Part shown: positions 49,568 to 56,028 of the stretch, piece after piece
Position numbering within the stretch: position 1 is the first letter of the stretch
How the letters are laid out: each line of letters opens with the position of its first letter
Source: an uncultured Bifidobacteriaceae bacterium
GTDB taxonomy: Bacteria; Acidobacteriota; Vicinamibacteria; Vicinamibacterales; UBA2999
NCBI GenBank assembly: GCA_964505975.1
Contig: CAZDLW010000001.1
Coordinates: forward strand, 25,576 to 89,575
DNA length: 64,000 bases
Direction: 5' to 3'
Notes under the pieces: generated by a model
Told to the model about the DNA's origin: nothing
The model's input: the letters and a program-made list of their open reading frames with translations, nothing else
Databases searched by the model: none
Position numbers and translations under genes: made by a program

Positions 49568-49591
49568 CCTGGCTCTACCGGGTTGCGAGCG

Positions 49592-49620
49592 TTGGAAGGC
49601 AGCTGGTTGCGCGTTATACT
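49592..49620 (+). promoter_or_regulatory. sigma70-like promoter candidate for the gvp-like locus
   Basis: TTGGAA (49592-49597), a 17-nt spacer, then TATACT (49615-49620), 84 nt upstream of ATG 49704. Confidence 0.4.
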
Positions 49621-49703
49621 TCGCCATTCGCGCGAGCCTCACGCCGCTCGGAGCGGCAGGAGTCGCATCGCGGGCCCCGCTGGACTGAGCGCATTTCTCC
49701 TGC

Positions 49704-50052
49704 ATGTCGATCGACCTGAGAACGACTCCGAGCCGTGGCAACGCCGGACTGGTCGACGTCCTCGATCGCGTGCTCGACAAGAGACTGGTGGTTGCTGGCG
49801 ACATCAAGGTGTCGTTGGCCGATGTCGAGCTGCCGCCTTCTGATCTGCTCGATGAACAAGGCCGAAGAGGTTGGTCTCGACTGGTGGAAGTACGACCGGC
49901 ATCTCTCGCCGGGCCGCGAGCAGATCGCACGGGAGAACGAGGCGCTTCGTGCGCAGGTGCGATCGCTCGAGCGTCGCCTGGCCAACGTGGCGGGGCCCCG
50001 CGTTGCGGAGGCTCTGGGCCACGACTCCAGAAAGGCACGACGACGACGATGA
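49704..50052 (+). pseudogene. GvpA/GvpJ-family gene disrupted by a frameshift/deletion
   Basis: Frame 0 encodes ...[28 protein letters not shown]. The homologous continuation RLLICSMNKAEEVGLDWWKYDRHLS... is in frame +1 from 49834 to stop 50052. Confidence 0.65.
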
Positions 50053-50126
50053 CGCTGCTTGGGGCGCGCGGAGCGCACCCGATTGATCGCAGCACGTGCG
50101 AGTGATCGCCCGAAGGAGCTTCAGGA

Positions 50127-50456
50127 ATGGCCGTGGAACGGGCAGCCGGAGGGACGAGTCTCATCGACGTCCTCGACCGAGTACTCGACAAGGGCATCGT
50201 CATCGATGCCTGGGTACGGGTGTCACTCGTGGGGATCGACCTCATCACCGTCGAAGCGCGTGTGGTCGTCGCGTCGATCGACACCTATTTGAAGTACTCC
50301 GAAGCCGTGGGCGCGGTGGGGTCAGCCGCCCGACCCACGCTGGAGCCGCTTCGACCGTATGACGAGCTCGCCGCGGAGAATGTCGTCTTGCGCGCCAAGC
50401 TCGCGAACGCCGCAACGGCGCGACGGTCCGTCCCGATTCGGCGTCGTCGATCGTAG
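50127..50456 (+). CDS. gvpA: Gas vesicle structural protein GvpA-family, with extended C-terminal tail
   Basis: [61 protein letters not shown] is a near-consensus GvpA core. A ~45-aa extra tail ends in RRRRS. Confidence 0.85.
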
Positions 50457-50618
50457 GCGGCCACGCCGGGACGCGACGGCGCAGCGCGAGCCTGCGCCGG
50501 CGCCGACTTTCGACCAGGCGTTGACGATGCTGTTGGAACGACGAGGCACCTGTGCGCAGTTGGTCACGGCTCCGCGTCGCGCCGGCTCGCCAGAGACCAC
50601 GAAGCGTTGCGCGATCAC

Positions 50619-52808
50619 ATGAACAATCCAACACGCTCGCTTCGCGTGCGCACGTCCGCGCGTCCGCCGCTCCGGACGGTCGACGATGCGGCCCGACTGG
50701 ACCTGCTCGAGCGCTGTCTCGAGCTTCGCGACGACCTCGTCCGCTGCGCGCAGGTTGGTCTGCAATGGCTCTCCGACAACCTGGGCATCACACGGGCGGT
50801 GTGTCTCGGCGTGAACGAGGAATCGAGCGCGCTCGTTGGTCTTGCCGGGCTCGGGGTGCCGTTTGGCGAAGTGGAGCGCTTTGCGTGGCCGTTGACCGAC
50901 GTCCACGATCCGCTCGTGGCTGCCATGGTGCGTCGGGAGCCGACGGTGCTTCGCGCCGGGCGGGGCAACGGTCATGCGTCGCGCGCCCTCCCGCGAACAT
51001 TGGTGGGGACTGGGGCGGTCGTGGCTGTACCGCTCCGCGGTGCGCACAACGCCGCCATGCGCGGAGACGCGGTGGGCCTCCTGCTGTTCCGTGGCACCGT
51101 GGCCGCTTCAGGCGATGTGGAGTGGTTCGCGTCGGTTCTCGGTCGGAAGATGGACCAGGTCCGCGACCGCGCTGGCCTCGCGAAGGAGTCGCAGCGGCTC
51201 CGGCGCGAGCGGGCCTTGTTCCTGACCATCATCAACGCCGTGCCCGACCCCGTACTGCTCACCGATACCGACGGCCGGCTCATTGTCGCCAACGCGCGTG
51301 CCGAGAAGCTGTTCGCCGCAACCGACGAGGAGAGTGACGGGCGTCGTCGTGCCGTGGAGCTCAACAATATGCTGCTCTCGGCAGCGCTCTCGCGGTCGAC
51401 GCTCGAAGCCTCCTTGGACGCACGGGAGTTGCTGCTCGTCGATCCCGGCGATGGATCGGACCTGCTGTTCGAATTGTTGAGCACGATCGTGCAGGATCCA
51501 CGCGAGGGCACGGGCGTCGTGTCCGTGCTGCGAAACGTCACGGATCTCCGCCGTGCGACCGAGCAGATCGAGGAGAACTACCAGAAGCTGCGTGTCGCCG
51601 AGGCCGCCGCACGGGCCGAGCGCGATCGCCTCAACCTGATCATCGACTCGGTTGCCGATCCCATCCTCGTCACGGACCAGAGCGGCGCCACGGTCCTGAT
51701 GAACGCACCCGCGGAAGAGCTGTTTGCGACACTGCCAGAGGCGGAGCGTCACTCACAGCAAGTCGTCCAGGCCAACGACGCGCACTTCTCCTCGTTCATC
51801 TCGGGTCTGCTGCTCGGCCAGACCGGTCCTGGAGAGACGCGACGCGGCGAGGTCAACCTGACGAATCCTCGAACGGGTGAACAGGTCCCCGTGGAAGCCA
51901 TCTGCGGCAAGGTCCTCACGGAAGCGGGCGAGCTCACCGCGGTCGTCACGATTCTGCACGATCGGAGGGAGGCAACCGAACGCGTGCGACTGTACGAGCA
52001 GTTGAAGACCGTCTCCGACGAGCTGCAGATGCGCGTGGAGGCCGCAACGGCCGAGTTATCCACCCAGAACGAGCTCCTGCGACGCCAGGCCCTGGAGCTC
52101 GAGCAGGCGTCGCGGCTCAAGTCGCAGTTTCTCGCCAACATGTCTCACGAGTTCCGTACACCGCTGAACGCCATCCTGGGATACACGCAGATGTTGCTGC
52201 AGGGGGTCAGCGGAGGTGTGGCACCGCCGGTCCGCCGTCAGCTCCAGCGGATCGACTCCAACGGGCGTCACCTCTTGACCATCATCAACGAGATCCTGGA
52301 CATTACCCGGATCGAGGCGGGCCGCATGCCGATGCAGGTCAGTGAATTCGACCTGAACGCACTCGTTCCCGAGGTCATGGCGGAGCTGGATCCGGTGATC
52401 GCCCGTTCGAGTCTCACGGTGACCACGCTGTTGGGGCCGCACCCGATGATCGTGCGGAGCGACCGGCAGAAGGTGAAGCAGATCGTCGTCAATCTCTTCA
52501 GCAATGCGCTGAAGTTCACTCCGGATGGCGAAGTCGACATTGCGATCAGCCTCGATCCCGTCGGCCGCACCGCCTCGGTGGCGGTGGCCGACACCGGGAT
52601 CGGCATCGCGCCCGAGCATCACGACAAGATCTTCGAGGACTTCCGGCAGGTCGATGACTCCCCGTCGCGTCCGTATGGCGGCGCGGGCCTCGGTCTTGCG
52701 ATCTGTCGCCGGTTGGCTCTGGCCCTGGGCGGGCGGATTTCCCTGCGCAGCGCGCCAGGCGAGGGATCGACGTTCACGCTCATGATTCCCACGGACCTCT
52801 CACCATGA
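50619..52808 (+). CDS. Cytoplasmic GAF/PAS sensor histidine kinase
   Basis: ATG 50619 within ORF 50607..52808. There are no TM segments. PAS-like segments are IINAVPDPVLLTDTDGRLIVANARAEKLF and IIDSVADPILVTDQSGATVLMNAPAEELF. It has H-box MSHEFRTPLNAILGY and HATPase motifs DTGIGI...GGAGLGLAICR. Confidence 0.85.
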   Translation: MNNPTRSLRVRTSARPPLRTVDDAARLDLLERCLELRDDLVRCAQVGLQWLSDNLGITRAVCLGVNEESSALVGLAGLGVPFGEVERFAWPLTDVHDPLVAAMVRREPTVLRAGRGNGHASRALPRTLVGTGAVVAVPLRGAHNAAMRGDAVGLLLFRGTVAASGDVEWFASVLGRKMDQVRDRAGLAKESQRLRRERALFLTIINAVPDPVLLTDTDGRLIVANARAEKLFAATDEESDGRRRAVELNNMLLSAALSRSTLEASLDARELLLVDPGDGSDLLFELLSTIVQDPREGTGVVSVLRNVTDLRRATEQIEENYQKLRVAEAAARAERDRLNLIIDSVADPILVTDQSGATVLMNAPAEELFATLPEAERHSQQVVQANDAHFSSFISGLLLGQTGPGETRRGEVNLTNPRTGEQVPVEAICGKVLTEAGELTAVVTILHDRREATERVRLYEQLKTVSDELQMRVEAATAELSTQNELLRRQALELEQASRLKSQFLANMSHEFRTPLNAILGYTQMLLQGVSGGVAPPVRRQLQRIDSNGRHLLTIINEILDITRIEAGRMPMQVSEFDLNALVPEVMAELDPVIARSSLTVTTLLGPHPMIVRSDRQKVKQIVVNLFSNALKFTPDGEVDIAISLDPVGRTASVAVADTGIGIAPEHHDKIFEDFRQVDDSPSRPYGGAGLGLAICRRLALALGGRISLRSAPGEGSTFTLMIPTDLSP

Positions 52809-53197
52809 CGGATCAGACTGCGCCGTTGATTCTCGTTGTCGACGATTACCAGGACGCCCGCGAGATGTACGCCGAGTACCTGCAGTTCTCCGGGTTCCGC
52901 GTCGCCGAGGCTCGCAACGGCAACGAAGCACTCGAGCAGGCCTTCGCGCTGCAGCCGGATCTCATCCTGATGGATTTGTCGCTGCCCGGCATGGACGGCT
53001 GGGAGGCCACACGACAGTTGAAGCGCGACGATCGCACCAGGCACACTCCGATCGTGGCCTTGACCGGTCATGCTCTGGCGGGCGCGTCGGAAGGCGCCCG
53101 AAGGGCGGGCTGCGATTCCTTCGTCACGAAGCCCTGCCTGCCGGACGATCTCGTGGTGGAGATTCGCCGGATGCTGGATGCCGTGAAGCACAGGTAG
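52805..53197 (+). CDS. Stand-alone CheY-like response regulator
   Basis: ATGA overlap with the kinase. Motifs ILVVDDYQDARE, LILMDLSLPGMDG, and a conserved Lys in FVTKP. Confidence 0.9.
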   Translation: MTDQTAPLILVVDDYQDAREMYAEYLQFSGFRVAEARNGNEALEQAFALQPDLILMDLSLPGMDGWEATRQLKRDDRTRHTPIVALTGHALAGASEGARRAGCDSFVTKPCLPDDLVVEIRRMLDAVKHR

Positions 53198-53243
53198 GAG
53201 CGGCGGCCCCGACCCGAACGACGCCCAACGACACGACGCGCAC

Positions 53244-54377
53244 ATGGCCAAGGCAAAGAATCGAGCCCCGGCACGTTCTTCCAGTCGCTCACCCCAGGGC
53301 AGGCCCGCGGGTGGCTCCGGGAGGAGCGGGCGAGTTCTCCGGAATGCGTCCAAGGAACGGACGGGCTCCGCGAGCGTGAATCCACGCACCGGCGTGCGCG
53401 CGTCGGTCCCACGGCGGACCTCCGCGGCCACGGATCCCGGGCGTGTGAATCGGGGGCGCGGCACTCGCGAGGTGCGCCCGGACGGCGGTGGCACTCTCGC
53501 CCGAGAGGCCACAGCACGAGCGAGCCGCGCGCGCGAATCGTTCGTCGCGGCGAACGAGACGAGCCCGGCTGTGTCACCGGCACCGCATGGGCAGAAAGCC
53601 GAGGCCGGCGACCATGGACGCTACGTCTACTGCATCATCCGCTCGACCAGCCCGCTGAGGTTCGGCCCAATCGGCATCGATGGACAGTCGCCGGAGGTGT
53701 ACACCGTCACCTACAAGGACATGGCCGCGGTCGTCTCCGACGTGCCCATCGCTCCACTGGACAGCACCAGGGAGCACGTGCTCGCGCACGAACGCGTGAA
53801 CGAGACCGTGATGCGCGGTCATACGGTCATCCCGATGTCCTTCGGCACGATCTTCAAGACGTCGGACGACATCGTCGAGCTCCTCCGGTCTGCCTACGAG
53901 GCGTTTGCGGACGTGCTCGACAAGATGCGCGACAAGCTGGAGTACGGCCTCAAAGTCCTGTGGGATCGCGACGAGATCGTGCGCGCCATCGAGCAGGAGG
54001 ACGAGGACATCCATCGGCTCAAGCGCGAGATCGCCTCGCAGAAGGGCTCGACGTATTTCGCGCGCATGCAGTACGGGCGGCTCATCGACACCGCGTTGCA
54101 GCATCGGTCGGAGCGGTACGTGGCCGAGTTCCTTCACCGACTGCGGAGCGTGTCCGTGGCTTCGCGGGTGAATCGCGCCATTGGCGACAAGATGATCATG
54201 AACGCCGCGTTTCTCGTGCAGCGCGATCAGGAGCGGGCGTTCGATCGGCGAATCAAGGAAATCGCGTCGGCGTTCGAGAGCCTGACGTTCAGGTATACGG
54301 GACCGTGGCCACCGTACAACTTCGTCAATATTCGGCTCAAGCTCGAGCGGGCGGGCCCGCCCGGAAAGACGGAGTGA
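53244..54377 (+). CDS. gvpF: GvpL/GvpF-family gas vesicle protein with Arg/Ser/Gly-rich N-terminal extension
   Basis: The core from YVYCIIRS (about nt 53619) to YTGPWPPYNFVNI matches GvpL_GvpF family motifs (AAVVSDV, VIPMSFGTIF). The first ~125 codons are low-complexity. An alternative GTG start is at 53571. Confidence 0.75.
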   Translation: MAKAKNRAPARSSSRSPQGRPAGGSGRSGRVLRNASKERTGSASVNPRTGVRASVPRRTSAATDPGRVNRGRGTREVRPDGGGTLAREATARASRARESFVAANETSPAVSPAPHGQKAEAGDHGRYVYCIIRSTSPLRFGPIGIDGQSPEVYTVTYKDMAAVVSDVPIAPLDSTREHVLAHERVNETVMRGHTVIPMSFGTIFKTSDDIVELLRSAYEAFADVLDKMRDKLEYGLKVLWDRDEIVRAIEQEDEDIHRLKREIASQKGSTYFARMQYGRLIDTALQHRSERYVAEFLHRLRSVSVASRVNRAIGDKMIMNAAFLVQRDQERAFDRRIKEIASAFESLTFRYTGPWPPYNFVNIRLKLERAGPPGKTE

Positions 54378-54378
54378 C

Positions 54379-54582
54379 GTGTTCGGTCTCGACTCCTTTC
54401 TCGGCTGGGTGCTACGCACCGTGACCGCTGCGGCACAGGCCGAGCTGAACGACGACTCGGAGCTGCGCGAACGGTTGCTGGAAGCCGAGCTCCGGCGTCA
54501 CGCGGGGGGGATCTCCGACAGCGACTTCACGGTCATCCCGATGTCCTTCGGCACGATCTTCAAGACGGCGGACGAGTTGTAA
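54379..54582 (+). CDS. gvpG: GvpG-like protein with a C-terminus replaced by a duplicated GvpF segment
   Basis: GTG start 1 nt after the gvpF stop. MFGLDSFLGWVLRTVTAAAQAELNDDSELRERLLEAELRRHAGGISDSDF resembles GvpG. The last 16 codons duplicate 53823-53869. Confidence 0.55.
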   Translation: MFGLDSFLGWVLRTVTAAAQAELNDDSELRERLLEAELRRHAGGISDSDFTVIPMSFGTIFKTADEL

Positions 54583-54611
54583 CGTGCGGGCGGGGGTCGC
54601 ATGCTCGAGGG

Positions 54612-54646
54612 ACGCGGGGCCTCGGGAGTGTCCCGAGGCCCCGCGT
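54612..54646. terminator. Bidirectional terminator-like hairpin between convergent genes
   Basis: Perfect 15-bp GC-rich stem ACGCGGGGCCTCGGG / CCCGAGGCCCCGCGT with a 5-nt loop. There is no U-tract. Confidence 0.55.
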
Positions 54647-54676
54647 GTGATCTGGACCGACGCGCGAGCGTCGTCC

Positions 54677-55924
54677 TTACCGTGCGACGCCGGAGTCCCT
54701 CAGTGACTCCAGTCTGCCGAGATCGAGGCCGGCCACGGCAGATCGCAGATCGTCCAGCTCAATCCCGTGGCCCTTGGCGCTCACCAGGAAGCGTTCACCC
54801 AGCACGATGGCGAATTCGTGTTCGCCGCCGGCCTTCGAGATCTTCTCGTGCACCAGGCGGTCGCCTACTTTCCGTGTGCGCTCGGAACTGTACTCGTCTT
54901 CCCGTTCGCCCTGGATGCCCGCCCAGCTCGCCAACCCGACGAGGCCACTGACGCCGCCGCTGTCCACGACTTCCAACGTCACGGTCCGGTTCGCCCCGTC
55001 ACCGTACGTGGCCCCCGCTCGGGCGATCATCAATCCCGTAATTCCCGTCCTCTCTGCGTTCTGACTCGTTCTCGGCAATCGTGCGAACGTCTCCGGCACG
55101 AATGCGCGAATCTCGTCCAGCTGGAGTGGTTCGACTCGCCGGCCGCCGCCGAACAGCGCTCCAAGGCCTTCCATGGCTGCAGCGACCTGGCCGCCTGTAT
55201 CGCCGCTTCTCTCGGCAGCCTCCATCTTCGCCGCGCTCTCCTCGATGCTGCGCGACAGTTGTCCCAGCAGCCCCACTGGACCGGTCTGGCTGGTCGCGGT
55301 CGTCGAATCGCTCCCCTCGGCGACGGTGCGCAGTGCGGCCGCGCCGATGGCTCCGGTCCCGACGATGAGTCCTCCCATGACCGTTACGATGAACGATACG
55401 ACGATGGCGCAAATCACGACGACGGCCGCGTAGAGAGGCGCTTTCTCTTCAGGACATCGCATCAGTCTCGGAAGACCGAGGTACAGGAGATACACGCCGT
55501 ACAGCGCACCGAGCAGGGCGAGGACGCTCAGAGGTGGCAGGATCTGAAGGACTCCCGCGACCCAGGCCGGGGTGTACGAGTACACGGCCAGCTTCAGTGC
55601 CCGGGTGGGGTCCTTCTGGGCGTCGAAACTCGGCGCGAGGGCGTTGATGATGAGCGACAGGACGAACACGCCGACAATCGCCATGCAGACGGCAAAAATA
55701 GCGGCGGCAAGTCCAGCGACGATCGGCACGCGGTAAGTGCCGACGAACGGCAGCGTGTAGCCGACCAGGGAACCGCCGATGAGGCCTGCGACCGCCCCCA
55801 CGGCCGCAAGCGGCAGCGCGTAGCCTGTCAGCAGTCCGCCGGTGGAGGCGGGCTCGTCGGCGATGACGCCCCACTCGGTCTTCGGAGACAGGCAGATCCT
55901 CTTGACGCGTTCGATGATGTCCAT
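54677..55924 (-). CDS. Yip1-domain membrane protein fused to a C-terminal soluble domain of unknown function
   Basis: ATG 55924 is preceded by GGAGG. MDIIERVKRICLSPKTEWGVIADEP plus five TM segments fits the Yip1 family. The C-terminal ~200 aa are unrecognised. Confidence 0.7.
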   Translation of the reverse strand: MDIIERVKRICLSPKTEWGVIADEPASTGGLLTGYALPLAAVGAVAGLIGGSLVGYTLPFVGTYRVPIVAGLAAAIFAVCMAIVGVFVLSLIINALAPSFDAQKDPTRALKLAVYSYTPAWVAGVLQILPPLSVLALLGALYGVYLLYLGLPRLMRCPEEKAPLYAAVVVICAIVVSFIVTVMGGLIVGTGAIGAAALRTVAEGSDSTTATSQTGPVGLLGQLSRSIEESAAKMEAAERSGDTGGQVAAAMEGLGALFGGGRRVEPLQLDEIRAFVPETFARLPRTSQNAERTGITGLMIARAGATYGDGANRTVTLEVVDSGGVSGLVGLASWAGIQGEREDEYSSERTRKVGDRLVHEKISKAGGEHEFAIVLGERFLVSAKGHGIELDDLRSAVAGLDLGRLESLRDSGVAR

Positions 55925-56028
55925 GGCTCGACCTCCACGACCTAGAGATTCTCGGCCGCTCGCCGCTGGCAGGACGAGGCGCGCATGGTAGCACAGCAGA
56001 GCTCGGCGCACGTATCGTCAGACGTTGC

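Follow-up and report, generated by a model that had tools for sequence, protein, structure and literature searches.

The locus described here raises the question of how the same 47 nucleotides came to be present both inside gvpF and at the end of the neighboring GvpG-like open reading frame (ORF) in a bacterial gas-vesicle cluster. A preliminary description of the window (the whole 64-kb stretch of DNA that we analyzed) explained the second copy as an in-frame duplication that had placed the core motif of GvpF on the C-terminus of the GvpG-like ORF. The copy is real and in frame, but it occupies the junction of a deletion of ~3 kb as filler and so is not a simple addition. We favor the reading, with a probability of about 0.7, that the second copy is filler DNA from one recent deletion-insertion, produced by template switching or illegitimate recombination, in a decaying gas-vesicle cluster.

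A repeat finder detects the two copies as a direct repeat on the + strand (53823–53869 and 54529–54575; 47 nt, two copies, 98% identity, spacing 706). The copies are identical at 39 of 39 positions in the core and at 46 of 47 over the full extent, as the preliminary description had stated (39 identical nucleotides followed by eight more with one mismatch). The 39-mer core, ACGGTCATCCCGATGTCCTTCGGCACGATCTTCAAGACG, occurs exactly twice in the 64-kb window when as many as three mismatches are allowed; it is not found in 100 dinucleotide-preserving shuffles of the window, with 0 occurrences expected by chance. The claim that both copies share a reading frame also holds, because each begins a whole number of codons from its ORF start, that is, 193 codons for copy 1 (53823−53244) and 50 codons for copy 2 (54529−54379). 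Copy 1 encodes ...RGH-TVIPMSFGTIFKTSDD... inside the 377-aa GvpF ORF, and copy 2 encodes ...SDSDF-TVIPMSFGTIFKTADEL-stop, closing a 67-aa ORF; the translations of the repeat itself are ...RGHTVIPMSFGTIFKTSDDIV... (gvpF copy) and ...SDSDFTVIPMSFGTIFKTADEL-stop (GvpG-like copy). The single mismatch is a T at 53862 and a G at 54568. The closest syntenic relative of the window, L001, has TCG at this site in its gvpF, as does the window's own gvpF; therefore, the derived base (54568 G) sits in copy 2, where it is either a later substitution or a copying error. One difference in 47 nt, as compared with a nucleotide divergence of ~17% from the nearest relative, agrees with the earlier proposal that the duplication is recent.

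We compared the window with 82 related loci from species-representative genomes. Thousands of close relatives of the GvpF core are known at 84–90% identity, and those that have a name are labeled Vicinamibacterales/Acidobacteria; the best reading is that the genome with the disrupted cluster is Vicinamibacterales-like. L001 is the locus that encodes P0002 on a 97-kb JGI contig, and its DNA is ~83% identical to the window. The flanks of L001 match those of the window, with histidine kinase (HK), response regulator (RR), and gvpF genes on the left and Yip1 and Lhr genes on the right. Between gvpF and Yip1, L001 contains gvpG (153 aa), a gvpL/F gene, a gvpJ-type gene, a second gvpL/F gene, and gvpK; the same five genes follow gvpF in L002, which has a different right flank. 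Using blastn, the window is collinear with L001 from 49589 to 54530 (L001 1937–6906, 83% identity), and collinearity resumes at 54678 (L001 9952) and continues through Yip1 and Lhr, with the flanks 81–83% identical. The intervening 2,969 nt of L001 (6905–9873), which span codon 51 of gvpG to the final codons of gvpK, are without a counterpart in the window. The lost DNA includes the 3′ half to two-thirds of gvpG, gvpL/F, gvpJ, the second gvpL/F, and nearly all of gvpK; a tblastn search with the L001 proteins identifies no GvpJ, GvpK, or further GvpL/F in the 64-kb window. In contrast to the cluster type of the relatives (gvpA, gvpA, HK, RR, gvpF, gvpG, gvpL/F, gvpJ, gvpL/F, gvpK), the cluster in the window is incomplete; matches to GvpL, GvpJ, and GvpK are located downstream of gvpF in ~60 of these 82 loci, among them almost every locus that reaches several kb past gvpF. 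Thus, the comparison with related loci that had been suggested at the outset exposes a deletion of ~3 kb relative to L001, and the GvpG-like ORF, which had been taken as the natural end of the cluster, is followed in L001 by four further genes that are missing here. Reduced clusters are also found among the relatives: L018, on a contig that starts at the second gvpA, has gvpA-HK-RR-gvpF and then an FtsH gene and lacks gvpG, gvpL, gvpJ, and gvpK beyond gvpF, and in L033 gvpF is followed directly by gvpK. Some or all of gvpG, gvpL, gvpJ, and gvpK are absent from these loci as well, so such loss may be biologically ordinary in the clade.

The 67-aa ORF (54379–54582, + strand) has the composition expected if it spans this deletion. 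As judged from Pfam and the comparison with L001, it is a chimeric, truncated ORF that consists of gvpG codons 1–50, 47 nt from gvpF, and the last 7 nt of gvpK including the stop; in terms of residues, it reads GvpG 1–50, then GvpF 194–209, then the gvpK stop. The ORF passes the gathering threshold for GvpG (PF05120; 38.7 bits vs the cut-off of 30.6, E 1e-9), with a match that is limited to residues 8–51 (profile positions 12–55 of 67) and does not cover the full-length domain. The match stops at residue 51, so in the alignment to the GvpG profile that had been recommended, the similarity to GvpG ends where the repeat starts. The tail scores 19.0 bits against GvpL/GvpF (PF06386), below the cut-off of 23.6 and over profile positions 48–89 of 245 only. 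Residues 1–50 are orthologous to the N-terminus of GvpG, but the conserved xxIExDLLxRIRxIK segment and the remainder of the protein are missing; the tail is a piece copied from GvpF, but its 16 residues fall below the threshold for that family. The GvpG of L001 has 153 aa, of which the counterpart in the window keeps 50: L001 reads ...GEISDDEF-TAIESRLLSRIRDL... and the window reads ...GGISDSDF-TVIPMSFGTIFKTADEL-stop. The 28 other GvpG orthologues in the alignment read ...EISDxEF-xxIExDLLxRIRxIK..., so that all 29 shown continue with the IExDLL..RIR..IK segment that the ORF in the window lacks; thus, the normal C-terminus of GvpG has been replaced, as had been proposed. No orthologue from ~75 related loci ends with TVIPMSFG or a similar sequence, so we found no GvpG that naturally ends with the motif. 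The start of the ORF (GGAG-N5-GTG) overlaps the gvpF stop, and the GTG and the upstream GGAG are shared with L001; with this start retained, the chimeric ORF may still be translated.

The sequences at the two joints define the ends of the deletion. At the left joint, gvpG in L001 reads GAATTC ACC GCG ATC GAG, the window reads GACTTC ACG GTC ATC CCG, and the gvpF donor reads GGTCAT ACG GTC ATC CCG. Alignment of TTC ACC GCG ATC in the gvpG of L001 with CAT ACG GTC ATC in gvpF (TTCACCGCGATC vs CATACGGTCATC) suggests 2–4 nt of microhomology at this joint. Because L001, as the nearest outgroup, is no more than ~83% identical to the window, the ancestral bases at both joints, and with them the microhomology, are inferred, not observed; on this comparison, a few bases shared by gvpG and gvpF (ACSG, ATC) were likely present at the switch point. 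No microhomology is demonstrable at the right joint in the comparison with the relatives. There, the relevant sequences are AAGTTGTTGTAG CGTGCGGGCC in L002, AAGCTGATGTGA CGTGGTGGGCGG in L001, and GAGTTGTAA CGTGCGGGCGG in the window. In almost all of 29 relatives, GvpK ends with ...LNLDLGPxGKL, a final M, L, or I, and the stop; the codons at the stop are AAG TTG TTG TAG CGTGCGGGCC (L002), AAG CTG ATG TGA CGTGGTGGGCGG (L001), and GAC GAG TTG TAA CGTGCGGGCGG (window). The sequence of the window from 54576 to 54600 matches the DNA of the relatives at and after the gvpK stop. Because the stop region matches L001 and L002, the last 7 nt of the chimeric ORF (GTTGTAA, 54576–54582, + strand) are the remainder of gvpK, that is, its last codon and stop, followed by the native sequence 3′ of gvpK. 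The gvpF-derived stretch extends to 54575, in agreement with the 47-nt extent of the repeat. Both joints are in frame, which has a probability of ~1/9 by chance.

The copied bases between these joints (54529–54575, + strand) are located exactly where collinearity with L001 breaks. They match the window's own gvpF at 46 of 47 positions, and the best match among the 82 relatives is 44 of 47. The deleted gvpL/F paralogues match at only 22–23 of 47 positions, which is chance level and no better than gvpJ or gvpK, and their products read AVLPMQLFTLF and ALLPARFGTCL at the corresponding site. Given 46/47 for gvpF as compared with 22–23/47 for the paralogues, the donor is, as judged from the bases, the window's own gvpF (53823–53869, + strand). 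The donor copy encodes TVIPMSFGTIFKTSDD of GvpF, and each of the 82 related loci has a single match to the motif T[VLI][ILV]PM.FG, at this position in gvpF. We therefore reject the possibility that the filler is the remnant of a deleted gvpL/F paralogue, and the preliminary description was correct in arguing against an old paralogue. It had also proposed gene conversion, which we likewise reject: no orthologous GvpG tail resembles the motif, so there would have been no similar tail in gvpG to convert.

The remainder of the cluster contains a second lesion and several genes that appear intact. The first gvpA/J-like gene (49704–50105, + strand) is a pseudogene, with a 14-nt deletion between 49832 and 49833 that causes a frameshift inside the Gas_vesicle domain: the 14 nt lost relative to L001 are CTGACGATTCGAAT, the conserved continuation (LLICSMNKAEEVGLDWWKYD) is read in another frame, and the match to the Pfam Gas_vesicle profile covers only positions 2–29 of 39. 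This frameshift had been noted from the sequence; together with the junction, it agrees with the statement that the locus has been actively rearranged. The second gvpA (50127–50456, + strand; Gas_vesicle 1–39/39, E 8e-17; 90% identical to L001) is intact, as are the PAS histidine kinase within the cluster (50607–52808, + strand; Pfam PAS, HisKA, and HATPase_c), which occupies the same place in the majority of related loci that are sequenced across this region, the response-regulator receiver protein (52805–53197, + strand; Response_reg; 95% identical to L001), and gvpF, which holds the donor copy (53244–54377, + strand; GvpL/GvpF family, PF06386, E 2e-76 over residues 125–362; 90% identical to P0002 of L001). 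On the right flank, the gene for a Yip1-domain membrane protein (54677–56011, − strand; Pfam Yip1) is 85% identical to the gene directly after gvpK in L001 and fixes the far side of the deletion; a gene for a large Lhr-type helicase is located beyond it, also on the − strand. When 12–15 outgroups are used to assign amino-acid changes to the window or to L001, the counts are 1 vs 2 for the second GvpA, 13 vs 14 for the kinase, 2 vs 0 for the regulator, and 3 vs 8 for GvpF; in this relative-rate test, none of these four genes has an excess of window-specific change as compared with L001. This result implies either that the lesions are recent or that selection still acts on these genes.

A perfect 16-bp GC-rich hairpin with a 3-nt loop (54612–54646) is located between the gvp operon and the convergent Yip1 gene. 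This hairpin dominates the predicted RNA and DNA folds (z = −3.8) and has no second copy in the window; it probably acts as a bidirectional terminator that lacks a T-tract. A scan of 53000–55000 for sigma-70 promoters and T-tract terminators identified nothing, and the hairpin was not called. We also considered a mobile or REP-like element at the junction and rejected it: the nearby hairpin occurs once in the window, and nothing IS-like is present at the junction.

Two of the observations expected for a templated insertion are present, namely lost sequence with collinear flanks and inserted bases that match at 46 of 47 positions a template located 706 nt upstream. In the proposed sequence of events, the ancestral cluster would have been gvpA-gvpA-HK-RR-gvpF-gvpG-gvpL/F-gvpJ-gvpL/F-gvpK, from which a rearrangement would have removed ~2.97 kb, from codon 51 of gvpG to the final one or two codons of gvpK. 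The ends would have been joined through 47 nt (possibly 43–47) of directly oriented sequence that had been copied from gvpF, 706 nt upstream. As the most economical mechanism, we infer microhomology-primed template switching, either in replication restart or in the repair of a break: a 3′ end located in gvpG (...GACTTCAC(G)G) would have re-primed on the short match ACGG..ATC in gvpF, ~45 nt of gvpF would have been copied, and a second switch would have led to the end of gvpK, with the reading frame kept at both joints by chance. In this sequence, one double template switch and two separate events look the same.

The junction could also have been formed in two steps, with a 706-bp tandem duplication of 53823–54528 followed later by a ~3.6 kb deletion from 47 nt inside the duplicate to the end of gvpK. 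Tandem duplications are frequent and unstable in bacteria. A head-to-tail duplication of this interval would have precisely the left joint seen in the window (GACTTC|ACGGTCATC; gvpG codon 50 | gvpF codon 194); the duplication would have been harmless, because a complete second gvpG would have remained downstream; and the single mismatch in copy 2 suggests that some time elapsed since the copying. However, this route needs two independent rare events in place of one complex event, no trace remains of the rest of the duplicated unit, and the intermediate is found in no relative (one motif per locus in the 82 loci); we consider it unlikely, although with an appreciable chance of being correct. 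Far less credible is an adaptive origin in which the fusion is a new protein, that is, the N-terminal helix of GvpG joined to the conserved β-strand motif of GvpF (e.g., a regulator or decoy in a reduced gvpA-HK-RR-gvpF module). The preserved frame at both joints, the retained GGAG-N5-GTG start, the absence of visible decay in the retained genes, and the reduced gene set of L018 (gvpA, HK, RR, and gvpF, with the later genes absent) would all suit such a module. However, preservation of the frame at two joints is expected about once in nine cases by chance, the architecture is found in none of the 82 loci, 16 residues from the core of a β-sheet would be unlikely to fold alone, and such a module would include a first gvpA-like gene that carries a frameshift. 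The chimeric protein (P0001) is also unique, with one cluster, one member, and one NCBI contig (95 kb) among 5.8 billion protein clusters. We thus regard the chimeric ORF as a mutational by-product, presumably one that lacks a function, and the probability of an adaptive fusion as very small.

The remaining alternative is that the junction is an artefact of the library or the assembly, that is, a metagenome-assembled chimera from a real genome with an intact cluster. All of the relatives are MAGs, and P0001 is known from the single 95-kb NCBI contig only; the junction is found in no second assembly, and the retained genes appear to be fully constrained. Exact look-ups of the chimeric protein in assemblies gave no match, and a degenerate protein-level search of JGI metagenome contigs for the junction (DxDF|TVIPMS) gave 0 matches. 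A scan of metagenomes for the lineage-specific N-terminus of GvpG identified one contig (L083/L084), which is no closer than L001 and ends inside gvpG. The lack of excess change in the retained genes provides no independent sign of long-term decay and fits a recent event and an artefact equally. The structure of the junction and its surroundings argues against an artefact. Directly beyond the 47 nt, the sequences around the two copies diverge, leaving no long shared k-mers for a de Bruijn mis-join; a chimeric read would need two switches on 0–4 nt of homology and would also have to prevail over the true path. Past the deletion, the Yip1/Lhr flank is in the correct synteny, as in L001, and one base distinguishes the copy from its donor. 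The first gvpA-like gene has an unrelated 14-nt deletion, and the presence of a second, independent inactivating lesion in the cluster favors real decay over assembly error; the clusters of L018 and L033 are also truncated or rearranged. An artefact is therefore improbable, and a single recent deletion-insertion remains our preferred explanation of the junction.

With gvpJ, gvpK, and gvpL gone and the first gvpA-like gene frameshifted, this locus would no longer be able to make gas vesicles, unless the missing genes are located elsewhere in the genome. For annotation, the 67-aa 'GvpG' (PF05120) should be treated as a chimeric remnant and the locus scored as a disrupted gas-vesicle cluster; gas vesicles should not be predicted for the organism from this locus. 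For mutation biology, the preferred reading would make the junction a clean natural bacterial example of a deletion sealed with copied filler DNA. Such scars are well catalogued in eukaryotes and are rarely noted in prokaryotic genomes; a systematic search of pseudogenised operons could establish how frequently template switching occurs in bacteria. The weight of this scar is limited to that of a single case from an uncultured genome, known from an assembly only. Two stronger interpretations, separately or together, are distinctly doubtful: that the junction, as a natural bacterial example of a long (47-nt) templated insertion from 0.7 kb away, reflects a repair or replication-restart route of Acidobacteriota with the same scar as eukaryotic polymerase-theta end joining, and/or that the reduced gvpA-HK-RR-gvpF set, which recurs in L018, is a functional module that survives the loss of the other gvp genes.

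To our knowledge, polymerase theta is absent from bacteria. Templated insertions at the joints of deletions are an accepted product of repair that has been reported mainly from eukaryotes to date (PMC12426944). There they are a hallmark of polymerase-theta end joining, on which they depend; they are usually <25 bp and are copied from the immediately flanking DNA (PMC12426944). The junction resembles the products of this pathway and of SD-MMEJ (PMC12426944) in carrying a directly oriented nearby copy, in priming that would require minimal pairing, and in an occasional misincorporated base; in contrast to insertions of <25 bp from within tens of bp of the break, the insertion in this bacterial window is 47 nt from a template 706 nt away. 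Flanking microhomology is the usual signature of deletions in the pseudogenes of bacteria, where 43% of the small deletions occur between microhomologies of 2–11 nt and have been ascribed to RecBCD-dependent alternative end joining (A-EJ) (PMC6054270, which cites Chayot et al., 2010, for A-EJ in E. coli). In the literature that we searched we found no description of long templated fillers in bacteria, which is not proof of their absence.

Replicative template switching of the FoSTeS/MMBIR type gives complex rearrangements. The proposed event shares with FoSTeS/MMBIR and with bacterial illegitimate recombination/A-EJ a backward jump (a joint of the duplication type) followed by a forward jump (the deletion), with little or no homology; it differs in that the window provides one natural example, with microhomology suggested at the left joint only, by an outgroup that is 83% identical. 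In the gvp clusters of Halobacterium and Microcystis, insertion and deletion mutants lose function, and the classic cases mostly involve insertion sequences. Those mutants and the window are alike in that spontaneous structural mutations disrupt essential gvp genes and leave partial clusters; they differ in that the mutants are mostly IS-caused, whereas the junction in the window has no visible mobile element. Both the mutation (a deletion-insertion with templated filler) and the locus in which it occurred (a gas-vesicle cluster) are of types that are already known.

Compared with the nearest syntenic relative (L001), the first gvpA/J-like gene (49704-50105) has an out-of-frame 14-nt deletion within its Gas_vesicle domain, with the break between 49832 and 49833; the conserved C-terminal part of the gene is read on in a different frame, that is, in the ORF at 49735-50052.

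At the other end of the cluster, a perfect, GC-rich 16-bp inverted repeat with a 3-nt loop (54612-54646) lies between the convergent operons, 36 nt downstream of the junction where the ~3-kb deletion is filled by the 47-nt copy from gvpF, and it occurs nowhere else in the window. The sequence at the same place in L001 is only partly similar. This inverted repeat is probably a terminator that lacks a T-tract; we also speculate that it may have favored fork stalling at the end of the deletion. Within gvpF, a small direct repeat, CGGTCAT-A-CGGTCAT (53813-53831), sits right where the donor copy begins on its left side.

Ahead of its Pfam domain, the GvpF protein carries a basic N-terminal extension of ~120 residues with a high content of Arg, Ser, and Pro (53244-53615 in the window; 5620-6000 in L001). 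Because the starting residues, MAKAKNR, are common to the window and L001 and the GvpFs of the relatives are 320-377 aa long, the extension seems, from these sequences, to be conserved in its presence, not in its sequence.

Downstream gvp genes are also missing in other relatives. In one (L018, 3285-6400), gvpF is followed by a 98-aa ORF without an assignment and by an oppositely oriented FtsH gene; in a second (L033, 800-2300), the gene immediately downstream of gvpF is gvpK (Pfam GvpK, E 6e-32), beyond which lie unrelated genes. Erosion or rearrangement of the gvp cluster seems to be recurrent in this clade. A different arrangement is found in a subgroup of loci with GvpFs that are ~75% identical (L035, L037, L038, L041, L042, L046-L048, L051, L058, and L062): gvpF-gvpG-gvpL-gvpJ comes first, and the gvpA-like gene(s), the histidine kinase, and, where the locus reaches far enough for it to be seen, RR (response regulator)-gvpK lie 6-9 kb downstream of it; several of these loci have a gvpA2-like match just upstream of gvpF.

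Eight relatives with GvpFs 70-85% identical to that in the window (L070, L017, L043, L049, L052, L054, L059, and L065) are from bins labeled Candidatus Nitrosocosmicus (an archaeon), Gemmatimonadaceae, Myxococcales, and Planctomycetota. The occurrence of such similar GvpFs, in mostly the same cluster layout, under such diverse labels suggests binning contamination or mislabeled MAGs more than transfer.

Between gvpA and gvpF, the window encodes a PAS histidine kinase together with a response regulator that has a single domain (50607-53197), as do most of the related loci (L001-L082) that cover this stretch; the bins of the loci with this pair are labeled Acidobacteriota, Methylomirabilota/Rokubacteria, and Myxococcales. 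These loci appear to represent a conserved type of gas-vesicle cluster with its own two-component system.
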